A stretch of 32,000 nucleotides of DNA from Paracoccus suum (GTDB lineage Bacteria > Pseudomonadota > Alphaproteobacteria > Rhodobacterales > Rhodobacteraceae): assembly GCF_003324675.1 (NCBI RefSeq), contig NZ_CP030918.1:2190001-2222000 (forward strand). The letters run 5' to 3'. The position numbers and the translations under genes were made by a program. The notes below the pieces were generated by a model, which saw only the letters and a list, made by a program, of their open reading frames with translations, did not search any database and had not been told where the DNA came from. This document shows, piece by piece, positions 6,088 through 30,548 of this stretch (position 1 is its first letter; each line of letters opens with the position of its first letter).

Positions 6088-6597
6088 ATGGACCGCGACA
6101 TGCCCGATACCCCCCAAAACCCTGCCCAGCCATCCACGACCGAGGCCGATCTCGCCCTGATCAAACGGATCATCCCGCACCGCTACCCCTTCCTTTTTAT
6201 CGACAAGGTGACCGGCATCGTGCCGAACAGCCGCGCCGTCGGGATCAAGAACGTCACCTGCAACGAGCCGCATTTTCAGGGCCATTTTCCGGATCGCCCG
6301 ATCATGCCGGGCGTCACCATCATCGAGGCAATGGCCCAGACCGCCGCCGTTCTGGTCGGCATCAGCATGGATCTGGTCGACAAGTCGGCGCTGACCTATT
6401 TCATGGCCATCGACGATTGCCGGTTCCGCCGGATGGTCGTTCCCGGCGATGTGCTGTCGCTGGAGGTCGAGGTGGTGCGCGGCGGCGGCAAGGTCTGGAA
6501 ATTCAGCGGCCGGGCAACGGTCGATGGGCAGCCGGCGGCCGAGGCGAATTTCACGGCCATGATGGACCTCAAGGGCGACGCCGGCCGCAATGGCTGA
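6088..6597 (+). CDS. fabZ: 3-hydroxyacyl-ACP dehydratase FabZ
   Basis: Motifs [13 protein letters not shown] and [15 protein letters not shown]. The track start 6016 adds an Arg/Pro-rich extension that is implausible. ATG 6088 or ATG 6100 gives the normal size of about 165 aa. Confidence 0.88.
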
Positions 6598-10944: not shown

Positions 10945-10960
10945 AAATGTTTGCCTTCCG

Positions 10961-10976
10961 GTAACGTCCTGTTAAC
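10961..10976 (+). promoter_or_regulatory. CtrA-box-like site GTAA-N7-TTAAC (one mismatch to TTAA-N7-TTAAC) about 60 bp upstream of the ctrA start
   Basis: GTAA at 10961-10964, 7-nt spacer, TTAAC at 10972-10976. The consensus is quoted from the Caulobacter/Rhodobacter CtrA literature. No binding data are available. Confidence 0.3.
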
Positions 10977-11029
10977 CTTTCGGTGATACGAGTGTTACAC
11001 ACAACAAGAGCTTTGGAACGGAGGGCGTG

Positions 11030-11740
11030 TTGAGAATCCTTCTGGTTGAAGACGATCCCAGCACGGCGCGCAGCATCGAATTGATGCTGACCCACGCCAG
11101 TTACAACGTATACCGGACCGATATGGGCGAGGAGGGCATCGATCTTGCACGCCTCTATGATTACGATCTGATCCTTCTCGATCTCGACCTTCCAGACATG
11201 CACGGGATGGAGGTGCTGAGGCAGATCCGCCTCAGCCGGGTCGACACGCCGATCTTGATTCTGACCGGCTCGGACGACACCGAGAGCAAGCTCAAGGGCT
11301 TTGGCTTCGGTGCCGATGATTACATGACCAAGCCCTTCCACCGCGAGGAATTGGTCGCCCGCATCCAGGCCATCATCCGTCGTTCCAAGGGCCACAGCCA
11401 ATCGGTGATCCGCACCGGCCGCATGATCGTCAACCTGGACGCGCGCACGGCCGAGGTTGACGGCCGTCCGGTGAACCTGACGGGCAAGGAATACCAGATT
11501 CTCGAGCTGCTCAGCCTGCGCAAGGGCACCACGCTGACCAAGGAGATGTTCCTCAATCATCTCTACGGCGGGATGGATGAGCCGGAGCTGAAGATCATCG
11601 ACGTCTTCATCTGCAAGCTGCGCAAGAAGCTGGCCGAGGCGCTGGGCGGCGACAACCATATCGAGACGGTCTGGGGGCGCGGGTATGTGCTGCGCGAGCC
11701 AACGCCGCAACAGATCGAGCGCCTGGCCGTCGGCGCCTGA
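11030..11740 (+). CDS. ctrA: Cell-cycle response regulator CtrA (OmpR family)
   Basis: MRILLVEDD...[14 protein letters not shown] receiver domain and a winged-helix C-terminus [14 protein letters not shown]...[14 protein letters not shown], which is very characteristic of CtrA. GGAGGG at 11020-11025 is spaced correctly for TTG 11030. The track start GTG 11027 lies only 1-2 nt from that SD. Confidence 0.93.
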
Positions 11741-11852: not shown

Positions 11853-16132
<4,280 letters not shown>

Positions 16133-16149
16133 CCCGTGTCCGGCACGAT

Positions 16150-16164
16150 GTTCTTAAAAAGTTC
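16150..16164 (+). promoter_or_regulatory. Exact match to the alphaproteobacterial LexA (SOS) operator GTTC-N7-GTTC
   Basis: GTTC TTAAAAA GTTC is read directly, 18 nt after the recG stop, in the only AT-rich patch of this region. An inverted one-mismatch copy, GAAC-N7-CAAC, lies at 16188-16202. Function is not tested. Confidence 0.45.
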
Positions 16165-16224
16165 TTTACGCGCGGCTGTGATCGTGAGAACAAAGTGGCA
16201 ACACTGTCGCCACAGGGAATCGCC

Positions 16225-16320
16225 ATGGACCGCCAAGCCCTCTCCGACCTCGTCAGCGTAACCGCGCTTTTCGGCGCCATGATTGCCCTGCTGTGGCTGC
16301 CCGCGCTAGTCCCGGCCTGA
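16225..16320 (+). CDS. Hypothetical 31-aa single-TM peptide (MDRQALSDLVSVTALFGAMIALLWLPALVPA), possibly SOS-regulated
   Basis: AGGGAA at 16214-16219 lies 5 nt before the ATG. The ORF has a short polar head followed by about 21 hydrophobic residues. It sits between a LexA-box match and a strong terminator. An in-frame GTG at 16195 would give 41 aa. I recognise no family, so this could be non-coding. Confidence 0.3.
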   Translation: MDRQALSDLVSVTALFGAMIALLWLPALVPA

Positions 16321-16402
16321 CTGTTCACTGCCCCGCGTTGCCCGGATGGTCCGCTCGCCTGTGGACCCGTCGACCGTCCCCTCGGTAGGTAATGCGCAAC
16401 TG

Positions 16403-16429
16403 GCCGGCCGCCTTGCGGCCGGCTTTTTT
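16403..16429 (+). terminator. Rho-independent terminator (plus-strand orientation)
   Basis: GCCGGCCGC CTT GCGGCCGGC forms a perfect 9-bp GC stem with a 3-nt loop, followed by TTTTTT at 16424-16429. The T-tract overlaps the stop codon of the convergent IscU-like gene. There is no T-tract on the minus strand. Confidence 0.8.
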
Positions 16430-16868
16430 ATGCGCGCGTCGCCGCATCCGCGATGGCCGCCAGCGTCGCGTCCCAGGCGAGCATGATCGAGGCGTGCCGG
16501 TTGGGGAAATCGCGCGCCGCTGCCAGCACCGCAAGATCGGCAAAGGCGCCCTCCGGTGCGGGCCCCCCGGCGAGCATCCCTGCCAGTGCAGCGCGTGCGG
16601 CTTGGACCTCGTCCAGAGTCGGGCCCGGCATGTGCTTGCCGAGCAGACCCGCCGAGGCTTGCCCCAGCGCGCAGGCCCGAACCTGCTGGGCAAATTGCGC
16701 GATCCTGCCGCCTTCCATCGCCACCTCGACCCGTACGGTGGAGCCGCATTGCGGCGAGCGACGCTCGGCCGCGCCCTCGGGGTTGTCGAGACGACCGAGA
16801 TGCTCGATGTCGGCCGCAAGCGCCAACAACTGCCGCGAATAGAGGGCCATCAGATCGGTGTCGGACAT
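16428..16868 (-). CDS. Iron-sulfur cluster assembly scaffold-like protein (IscU/NifU N-terminal family, degenerate)
   Basis: Aligns by eye to IscU: SPQCGSTVRVEV with APACGDVMKLQI, VRACALGQASAG with YGCGSAIASSS, and NRHASIMLAWDA with KIHCSILAEDA. Start ATG 16868 is preceded by GGGAGG. The track start 16973 would overlap hisI. Confidence 0.78.
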   Translation of the reverse strand: MSDTDLMALYSRQLLALAADIEHLGRLDNPEGAAERRSPQCGSTVRVEVAMEGGRIAQFAQQVRACALGQASAGLLGKHMPGPTLDEVQAARAALAGMLAGGPAPEGAFADLAVLAAARDFPNRHASIMLAWDATLAAIADAATRA

Positions 16869-17222
16869 TGCGCGAGCCTCCCTTGGCGGTAGATAGGGGC
16901 GAGCGAGCGAAAGGAAAACCATGTTCGATCCCATCACGCTGCGCTTTGATGCCCAAGGCTTGATCCCTGCCATCGCCCAGGACGCTAGGGACGGCGCGGT
17001 GCTGATGATGGCCTGGATGAATGCCGAGGCAGTGCAGAAAACGCTTGAGGAAGGACAGGTAACCTATTGGTCACGCTCAAGACAGGCCTTCTGGCGCAAG
17101 GGCGAAACCTCGGGCCATCGGCAGCGGTTGGTCGAGATGCGGGTCGATTGCGACCGGGACTGCCTGTTGCTGATGGTCGAACAGACCGGTCCGGCCTGCC
17201 ACACCAACCGCCGCAGCTGCTT

Positions 17223-29895: not shown

Positions 29896-30444
29896 CTAGC
29901 CGTGCTTGTCGACGAAAGCCGCGAAAGCGTCGACAAATCCTTGCAGCAGCTTGCGTGTGTCGTCGGACTTGATCTCTCCGTCCGGGCCGAACCGCTCGCT
30001 GTTCCAGGTGATGTACATCTCTGGCGCGTGCATCACGATCATCCCCAGGTTCACCGCCGCCAGCCGCAGGTGCTGCTGGCCGGCAGCGGTCCCCGTCGCG
30101 CCCCCGGTCGCGCCGATGATGCCAACCGGCTTTCGCGTAAAGGAGCTTTGGCCCGACGGCCGGCTGCCCCAGTCAAATGTGTTGGCGAGAATCCCCGGAT
30201 AGCCGCGGTTGTATTCAGGCGAAACGATGAGGACGCCATCCGCGGCCTCGATCTGGCGCTTCATCCGCGTCACCGGGGCGGGCACCTCCGCCCACAGATC
30301 CTCGTTGTAGAGCGGCAGATCGCCGATCTCGACATTCTCGAATGTCAGCTTGTCCCCACCCAGTCCCTCAAGCGCATGGGCGAGCTTGCGATTGATCGAC
30401 CCACTTCTGAGCGAACCCACTAAAACGGCGACGTTTTTAGGCAT
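29896..30444 (-). CDS. NAD(P)H-dependent FMN reductase family oxidoreductase
   Basis: MPKNVAVLVGSLRSGSINRKLA...LPLYNEDL...ADGVLIVSPEYNRGYPG, typical of the FMN_red family. ATG 30444 is preceded by AAGAGGG. The track ORF's 180-aa Pro/Arg/Ala-rich N-terminal extension is rejected. Confidence 0.85.
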   Translation of the reverse strand: MPKNVAVLVGSLRSGSINRKLAHALEGLGGDKLTFENVEIGDLPLYNEDLWAEVPAPVTRMKRQIEAADGVLIVSPEYNRGYPGILANTFDWGSRPSGQSSFTRKPVGIIGATGGATGTAAGQQHLRLAAVNLGMIVMHAPEMYITWNSERFGPDGEIKSDDTRKLLQGFVDAFAAFVDKHG

Positions 30445-30548
30445 TGGCCCTCTTTCCGATAGCATACCGGGCATAACCGGGCGTTGCCGGCAGGGTTCCC
30501 GGGGGTTAGGAAACGAAAGAGGAACAACCGGAAAGAAGGACGGTTTGC

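Follow-up and report, generated by a model that had tools for sequence, protein, structure and literature searches.

The stretch analysed here (hereafter, the window) comprises 32,000 nucleotides of the Paracoccus suum genome, in which the genes ctrA, ligA and recG are followed by an unannotated intergenic gap. The 295 bp between the recG stop codon and the next gene hold a 31-codon open reading frame (ORF), preceded by two LexA-type operator sites and followed by a structured 3' untranslated region (UTR) and an intrinsic terminator, and the whole unit begins 18 nt past the recG stop (Table 1). A first-pass annotation, made from the letters alone, had described a self-contained mini transcription unit with a LexA-type operator, and all of the features it listed were found in the same places when re-examined. 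Comparison with related genomes bears this description out, as operator, ORF and terminator are kept together after recG across the order Rhodobacterales. We put at roughly even the chance that positions 16146-16429 constitute an autonomous SOS (DNA-damage response) gene of Paracoccus suum that has been overlooked by annotation.

Table 1. Features of the small-gene unit and neighbouring genes, numbered from the first letter of the window (MFE, minimum free energy; TSS, transcription start site).
Feature	Position	Strand	Basis or remark
31-codon ORF (MDRQALSDLVSVTALFGAMIALLWLPALVPA)	16225-16320 (ATG 16225, TGA 16318-16320)	+	new small-protein family
LexA-type operator site 1, GTTC-TTAAAAA-GTTC (GTTCTTAAAAAGTTC)	16150-16164 (23-mer 16146-16168)	+	sole exact match in the window
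LexA-type site 2, inverted, one mismatch, GAAC-N7-CAAC (GAACAAAGTGGCAAC)	16188-16202		minus-strand reading GTTG-CCACTTT-GTTC
Invariant block TGAGAACAAAG plus GGCAAC	16185-16202		holds site 2 and probable -10/TSS region
CtrA-like box TTAA-N7-TTTAC (TTAAAAAGTTCTTTAC), overlapping site 1 and -35	16154-16169	+	one mismatch to TTAA-N7-TTAAC
-35-like hexamer TTTACG	16165-16170	+	promoter role inferred
5'-UTR hairpin GTGGC-N9-GCCAC	16195-16213	+	
Shine-Dalgarno-like AGGGAA	16214-16219	+	
Structured 3' UTR	16321-16401	+	MFE fold, conserved blocks
Single-stranded CTGCCCC	16328-16334	+	MFE fold
Helix P1	16334-16342/16388-16396	+	MFE fold
Hairpin A	16345-16354/16361-16371	+	GCCTG 16357-16361 in loop or at loop edge
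Hairpin B	16373-16376/16383-16386	+	loop TCCCCT 16377-16382, inside GTCCCC motif 16376-16381
Intrinsic terminator	16402-16429	+	stem 16402-16424, 10 pairs (9 G-C), CTT loop, T6 16424-16429
recG	14015-16132 (stop 16130-16132)	+	Pfam DEAD, Helicase_C, RecG_dom3_C; exact match to Paracoccus suum RecG WP_114076431.1
ctrA	11027-11740	+	NCBIfam NF045991 equivalog, 410.8 bits vs cut-off 350
NifU_N-like ORF, convergent, next after the recG gap	16428-16973	-	

Related loci were collected by a RecG scan taking one genome per species, which yielded 80 recG loci with RecG identities of 68-74% in Paracoccus and 62-67% in other Rhodobacterales. In these loci box, peptide and terminator are all conserved after recG. 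The family hidden Markov model (HMM) finds the ORF in 76/81 sources, where it occurs in exactly one copy per locus on the plus strand after recG, and no second copy was found elsewhere in the 0.8 Mb of locus sequence; of the five misses, two come from truncated contigs. Three complete loci (L019, L040 and L071, from P. solventivorans and two metagenome-assembled genomes) have no box, ORF or RNA after recG, and L040 carries an unrelated 72-residue hydrophobic ORF at the corresponding position.

The ORF is almost certainly a real protein-coding gene, judging from how it varies among orthologues. Differences fall most often at the third codon position and least often at the second (3>1>2), and in the reading frame of the ORF the ratio of nonsynonymous to synonymous differences (pN/pS; values uncorrected, with pS near saturation) comes to 0.50-0.56 for the 31- and 40-residue sets, whereas the two alternative frames give about 0.9-1.0 and 1.5-1.7, a coding-type pattern with the synonymous bias expected of a translated ORF. 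Family members are 31-45 residues long: those of Paracoccus mostly have 31 (MTRESLSDLLGTVAISVTAIILFSLPSILAA type), and most other genera have 40, with an extra charged N-terminal stretch (MAKEIKSVIxRSxDTLLxDALG...). Asp8 (window numbering) never varies, and at least 90% of members keep Leu25-Pro26.

The first-pass annotation had assigned the peptide to no named family, and the searches agree: Pfam and NCBIfam at E<=10 gave no family for five representative peptides, and no precomputed Pfam domain lies on true family members among the relatives. A profile search returned 181 relatives, which among the 120 listed are either unnamed or called "hypothetical protein"; the named ones among the matches listed belong to Paracoccus and Roseobacteraceae. 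In a full HMMER search of 1.84 billion representatives the family amounted to 306 clusters at 50% identity, almost all of 29-79 residues. The 31-residue peptide itself is not present in a collection of 15 billion proteins and is therefore unannotated in the Paracoccus suum genome.

By sequence comparison, the small-gene unit keeps the ctrA-ligA-recG-ORF position across the order Rhodobacterales, with a single copy per locus. In Phaeobacter the ORF is annotated, in the context ligA-recG-ORF-(convergent gene)-hisI-gluQRS, a synteny shared with Paracoccus. In D. shibae, ligA (Dshi_1509) and recG (Dshi_1510) follow Dshi_1508, which we take to be ctrA, and are succeeded by an unannotated 400-bp gap. 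As the ORF is unannotated in both D. shibae and P. denitrificans, published transcriptome tables omit the small gene. A P. denitrificans small RNA (sRNA) catalogue does not mention its locus. Within a plasmid collection searched with tblastn, the family was found solely on the megabase-size second chromosomes of Paracoccus and Pseudorhodobacter, where it is again unannotated. A mobile or plasmid-borne toxin was rejected because these tblastn matches lie on megabase-size chromids only.

The operator itself would be unremarkable if seen in the window alone. The first-pass annotation had estimated that about one GTTC-N7-GTTC box would arise by chance in a window of this size, and this was right: one match was found against 0.6 expected, and 43/100 shuffles contained at least one. 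Because this count lies within chance, the significance of the box has to come from its conservation. Indeed, GTTC-N7-GTTC is present within 450 nt after the recG stop in 72/80 related loci, in nearly all of them no more than about 60 nt from the stop, with a spacer that is nearly always A-rich and YYAAAAA-like; several loci have three or four GTTC repeats in 11-bp phase. In an anchored alignment of 73 loci, sites 1 and 2 each occur in 70, at a fixed mutual spacing, and the common architecture reads TnTTCnCnnATGTTCTTAAAAAGTTC-TTTAC-N12-ATnTGAGAACAAAGnGGCAACA.

Both sites were also scored with a LexA matrix trained on published predictions, 77 LexA sites of alphaproteobacteria in all (Sanchez-Alberola et al. 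2012, PMC3323433 Additional file 4); its training scores have a median of 26.5 and a minimum of 7.8. Among about 64,000 window positions on both strands, site 1 is the second best (17.4) and site 2, read on the minus strand, the third best (14.4), and the next match reaches only 8.3. Site 2 additionally carries the canonical TTTGTTCTC flank of LexA sites. Taken together, these comparisons make LexA control of the small gene quite probable. The top match of the whole window lies elsewhere, at 30507-30529 on the minus strand (22.1, GGTTGTTCCTCTTTCGTTTCCTA), about 60 nt upstream of a gene for an NADPH-dependent FMN reductase (29899-30444, minus strand; Pfam FMN_red). This is no classical SOS gene, and the match, which has one exact GTTC only, may be due to chance.

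The P. denitrificans orthologue of site 1 was already predicted in print in 2012, in a study in which the downstream gene is unrecognised. For Pden_4082, in the recG column, Additional file 4 of PMC3323433 gives a predicted LexA site, AGATGTTCGCGCGATGTTCTTAA, at distance 2092, and this sequence is identical to the post-recG site at 6104-6135 of locus L015 (P. denitrificans DSM 413). A position of +2092 from the start codon places the site at the 3' end of recG, and by its location and sequence the published "recG" site would appear to belong to the downstream small ORF and not to recG. PMC3323433 inferred that recG of some alphaproteobacteria is apparently LexA-regulated; that statement may rest on a misassigned site.

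The elements of a putative promoter adjoin or overlap the two operator sites. Directly after site 1, 57/73 loci read TTTAC and the others TTGCC, TTGCA, TTGAC or TTGAT, variants that are all nearer to TTGACA, as expected for a -35 hexamer. Seventeen nucleotides beyond this -35-like element stands GAACAA, preceded by TGn, which gives the geometry of an extended -10. The first-pass annotation had seen no clear -35 or -10: its doubt about the -35 falls away, as TTTACG is there, and its doubt about the -10 stands, as GAACAA fits TATAAT poorly. We infer a promoter in which site 1 adjoins the -35-like element and site 2 covers the expected -10 and TSS. An alternative promoter using the A-rich spacer as its -10 was rejected, as no conserved -35 lies upstream of it in Paracoccus.

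Further downstream, a Shine-Dalgarno (SD)-like motif stands 4-15 nt ahead of the ATG in 67/75 homologous loci. The in-frame GTG at 16195, which the first-pass annotation had offered as the start of a 41-residue form, was rejected: homologues begin at the ATG after the SD, and the region around the GTG is conserved as DNA (site 2) rather than as protein. The 5'-UTR hairpin is less constant: in many Paracoccus relatives it is instead GGCAAC that pairs with GTTGCC, immediately ahead of the ATG, and most roseobacters have no hairpin. On the minus strand (16213-16195) the same hairpin, followed by TTTGTTCTCA, scores as a weak terminator-like site that could halt antisense read-through from the NifU-like gene, whose own end has no T-run there.

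The peptide is predicted to be a single-pass membrane helix with its N terminus inside and its C terminus outside (N-in/C-out). Its maximum Kyte-Doolittle value over a 19-residue window is 2.07, lysines and arginines are found solely on the N-terminal side, and AlphaFold, run with 36 sequences, models one helix over residues 3-28 (predicted local distance difference test, pLDDT, 91.7), in agreement with the one transmembrane helix that the first-pass annotation had predicted.

From these elements a mechanism can be proposed. In an undamaged cell, LexA bound at both sites would bracket the core promoter and repress it tightly; upon DNA damage, RecA-stimulated self-cleavage of LexA would permit a short burst of transcript. 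The peptide would insert N-in/C-out, with the invariant Asp at the membrane interface and Leu-Pro near the periplasmic end, and would bind a late membrane component of the divisome, of the FtsW, FtsI or FtsN class, so that septation is delayed until repair is complete. The co-transcribed 3' UTR, with its C-rich loops, would probably add an RNA-level activity or set the lifetime of the message. The precedent is SidA, the SOS-induced inner-membrane division inhibitor of Caulobacter crescentus, which acts on FtsW/FtsN. By this analogy we tentatively propose that the peptide is a division inhibitor, a reading that we hold at somewhat under an even chance. Its single-copy, core-genome and order-wide distribution would be more typical of a checkpoint component than of a type I toxin.

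Several observations weigh against a LexA-controlled division inhibitor. The sequence has no feature that singles out the divisome. No sequence link to SidA emerged, judged by the names of the listed profile matches, none of which is called SidA; unlike the gene described here, sidA (CC_1927) is flanked by dnaE (CC_1926) and by a gene for a nucleoside hydrolase (CC_1928), and the Caulobacter recG is CC_1437. Sites 1 and 2 both score below the median of the LexA training set, and site 1 has an A-rich spacer with an A preceding its second GTTC, where published sites favour a T-rich spacer and TGTTC. The putative -10 is a poor one, a sigma-70 scan of both strands of 15800-17000 found no promoter-like site, and transcriptional read-through from recG may occur.

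Alternatively the peptide, a small hydrophobic single helix in which a charged residue is conserved, could be a toxin that is induced by SOS and depolarises the membrane in the manner of TisB/DinQ, serving dormancy or persistence after DNA damage and not directed at the divisome. The double operator implies tight repression, as would suit a harmful product, and structured RNA on the transcript could limit translation, as it does in type I toxin mRNAs. We nevertheless judge a toxin unlikely. The absence of any promoter-like site on either strand of 15800-17000 and of any Rfam family means that no antitoxin RNA was detected, an ordinary SD stands in a short 5' UTR, and a single copy at a fixed core-genome position in 76/81 loci, and not on true plasmids, is unlike typical type I modules. 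Masking of the gene's own SD or start by the C-rich loops was rejected, as pairing between the initiation region and the 3' UTR was no stronger than in shuffles (duplex mean z -0.02; 1/66 below -2).

Whichever way the peptide acts, the transcript appears to carry a second conserved element. What the first-pass annotation had called an 82-nt tail before the terminator is indeed present, but it is more than a tail: by comparison among loci, the 3' UTR is an RNA whose structure is conserved and whose loops are C-rich. The terminator of nearly all Paracoccus loci lies 66-110 nt past the ORF, and the intervening sequence holds the conserved blocks CTGCCCCGCG, CGCCTGT, GTCCCC and GCGCGCAACT (23-27 loci). 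The inner hairpin in Paracoccus was assessed by a motif-in-loop test: across 21 loci, the loop that carries GCCTG is closed by stems of varying sequence (GGTCCG/TGGACC, CGGTGC/GCACCG, GGCGC/GCGCC, ACGAT/ATCGT and others), with a mean length of 5.3 bp, compared with 2.8 in shuffles.

Outside Paracoccus the 3' UTR is 150-200 nt long and follows the same plan on a larger scale. Folded independently, 28/28 roseobacter sequences form a long closing helix around hairpins, and the motifs CCUGUCCC, CUGCCU (CUGCCUG) and UUGCCUC fall in loops or single strands; the terminator reads CCGCCGCC...GCGGCGG-T7. The C-rich motif of roseobacters recurs up to five times per transcript, including in the stretch after the stop codon, and in many roseobacter loci the terminator loop reads CCUGUCCCGG (for example, L076 6480-6495). 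As MAFFT with RNAalifold, applied to the full set of 28 roseobacter 3' UTRs, brought out the terminator alone, the alignment being too gappy, the roseobacter structure was instead taken from a seven-sequence seed and a covariance model. At E<1e-3 this model finds 43 loci, always directly after the ORF, and nothing convincing elsewhere in 784 kb. Among the 34 roseobacter sequences aligned by the model, 90.7% of cells pair, compared with 70.4% when shuffled and 38-51% when partners are slid, and 33/39 pairs have compensatory changes, counts that come from an alignment fitted to the covariance model itself. In Rfam nothing reached the gathering threshold in the window or in 12 loci; the best scores below it (score/gathering) were 23.2/52 for Hrs13, 11.8/46.6 for SorX and 17.6/50 for sX13.

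An architecture conserved across the order, the pairing and compensatory changes in roseobacters, the exposure of CUGCCUG, CCUGUCCC and UUGCCUC in loops or single strands, the covarying GCCUG hairpin in Paracoccus and the confinement of model matches to the post-ORF position could all be taken to mean that it is chiefly the RNA that acts, as a riboregulator or protein sponge induced by SOS and working in trans through its C-rich loops, with the peptide secondary. There is a known class of sRNAs with C-rich loops, among them sX13, which the element matches weakly (17.6 bits). We regard an RNA-centred function as distinctly unlikely: the ORF is under clear protein-level selection and so is not incidental, the structure could merely stabilise the message or help termination, and the covariation counts come from a model-fitted alignment. 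It is also compatible with the division-inhibitor proposal, as the transcript could be a dual-function RNA.

The promoter holds one more candidate site, a CtrA-like box that overlaps site 1 and the -35-like hexamer, and ctrA itself lies about 5 kb upstream of the small gene. About 50 nt before ctrA, at 10960-10976, is a near-palindromic CtrA-like box, GTAACGTCCTGTTAAC, that resembles the site GTAACTCGCAATTAAC of the D. shibae ctrA promoter. These are the only two loci in the window with CtrA boxes of at most one mismatch (three matches against 0.09 expected, two of the three being the two strands of the near-palindrome). With a CtrA matrix rebuilt from predicted D. shibae sites, and therefore approximate, the box at 16154-16169 scores 19.0 and the ctrA-promoter site 19.2; the training minimum of this matrix, whose scores are inflated by AT-rich promoters, is reached by 45/74 small-gene promoters compared with 2% of control segments. 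The box is only partly conserved, as its first half-site, TTAA, is found in about 38% of loci. In 14/44 roseobacter promoters (for example, L055, L062 and L076), and in 0/27 of the Paracoccus type, an extra TTAA(C/T) follows exactly 11 nt on (TTTAC-N6-TTAAC), so that GTTC and TTAA half-sites interleave in 11-bp phase.

These matches, together with the A-rich spacer, which is untypical of LexA sites, raise the question of whether the GTTC repeats are not, or not only, LexA sites, and whether CtrA or another direct-repeat regulator drives what would be a cell-cycle rather than an SOS gene. This we consider improbable. No bases are better conserved than the GTTC tetramers, and the flank of site 2 is the canonical LexA one; the first CtrA half-site is missing from most loci, variants of the second half shift towards TTGACA and not TTAAC, and the near-equal matrix scores are subject to the provenance and AT bias just described. 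Joint control by LexA and CtrA is plausible from the arrangement of sites and more likely than control by CtrA alone; the A-rich spacer of site 1 may owe its retention to CtrA, or it may serve as an UP-like element. The fullest version of our proposal, one LexA- and CtrA-controlled transcript that combines a divisome-directed peptide with a C-rich riboregulator as a Rhodobacterales DNA-damage checkpoint beside ctrA-ligA-recG, is conceivable, and we would call it rather unlikely.

Finally, the notion that there is no gene here at all, only a chance ORF and a chance box within the recG terminator region, might appeal to a box count inside chance expectation and to an ORF left unannotated in Paracoccus suum, and its probability is close to nil, contradicted as it already is by the locus conservation, HMM and substitution data: box, ORF and terminator are co-conserved at 62-74% RecG identity, residues are invariant, substitutions follow a coding pattern, and gene callers independently annotate the ORF in Phaeobacter and further genomes.

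A LexA-controlled tiny membrane peptide is a known kind of gene. What is new, as far as the literature consulted shows, is the family, its order-wide conservation, its frequent annotation gaps, the corrected "recG" LexA site and the covarying 3' UTR RNA. SulA is largely limited to gammaproteobacteria, and our search of the literature on Rhodobacterales found no described SOS small protein or SOS sRNA. We know of no report from this order (Paracoccus, Rhodobacter and the marine roseobacters) of a division inhibitor induced by SOS or of a small SOS membrane protein. The small gene is thus a concrete, order-wide candidate for the damage-induced division brake of Rhodobacterales. With it comes a protein family, often missed by annotation, that counts at least 300 clusters at 50% identity, and it corrects a published inference about the P. 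denitrificans LexA site near recG. The covariation-supported structure may make the transcript a dual-function SOS RNA and, if CtrA does act here, the promoter would be a compact meeting point of cell-cycle and damage signals.

Among known systems, the closest regulatory counterpart is the LexA regulon of PMC3323433, which has the same operator type; there the site is filed under recG and the small gene is unrecognised. The 3' UTR resembles sX13 of Xanthomonas (RF02232) and the CcsR/"cuckoo" CCUCCUCCC RNAs of Rhodobacter in having several hairpins with C-rich loop motifs. It differs from them in its motif, which is CUGCCUG/CCUGUCCC and not CCCC or CCUCCUCCC, and in being a 3' UTR rather than a free-standing gene; membership of the sX13 family was rejected (17.6 bits against a gathering threshold of 50). 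In the sRNA DinR, which reportedly acts on ftsZ, there is likewise an SOS-type mRNA whose 3' UTR may be a division-linked regulator. According to PMC10907235, DinR derives by cleavage from the 3' UTR of dinI, an SOS gene of Klebsiella pneumoniae. The two cases differ in bacterial class, upstream gene and RNA fold.

The peptide itself invites comparison with TisB/IstR-1 and DinQ/AgrB of E. coli, which likewise involve a membrane peptide of about 30 residues with a single helix, under LexA-type control and with RNA structure on the transcript. Unlike those modules, the gene described here has no antisense or divergent antitoxin RNA that we could find, its sole minus-strand feature being a weak terminator-like hairpin; it is a single-copy gene at a fixed core-genome site with a short 5' UTR and an accessible SD, and Pfam and NCBIfam searches gave no sequence similarity to TisB or DinQ. 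With SidA it shares an alphaproteobacterial setting, a stand-alone tiny ORF, one hydrophobic helix (predicted here) and a GTTC-N7-GTTC operator. A conserved structured 3' UTR is, to our knowledge, not a described feature of sidA. By analogy, the small gene may best be viewed as a SidA analogue and not as a member of its family. SidA (29 residues) is the product of the most strongly mitomycin C-induced, RecA-dependent gene of Caulobacter (PMC4211646), and the likeness leads us to expect that the small gene, too, would be strongly induced by DNA damage.

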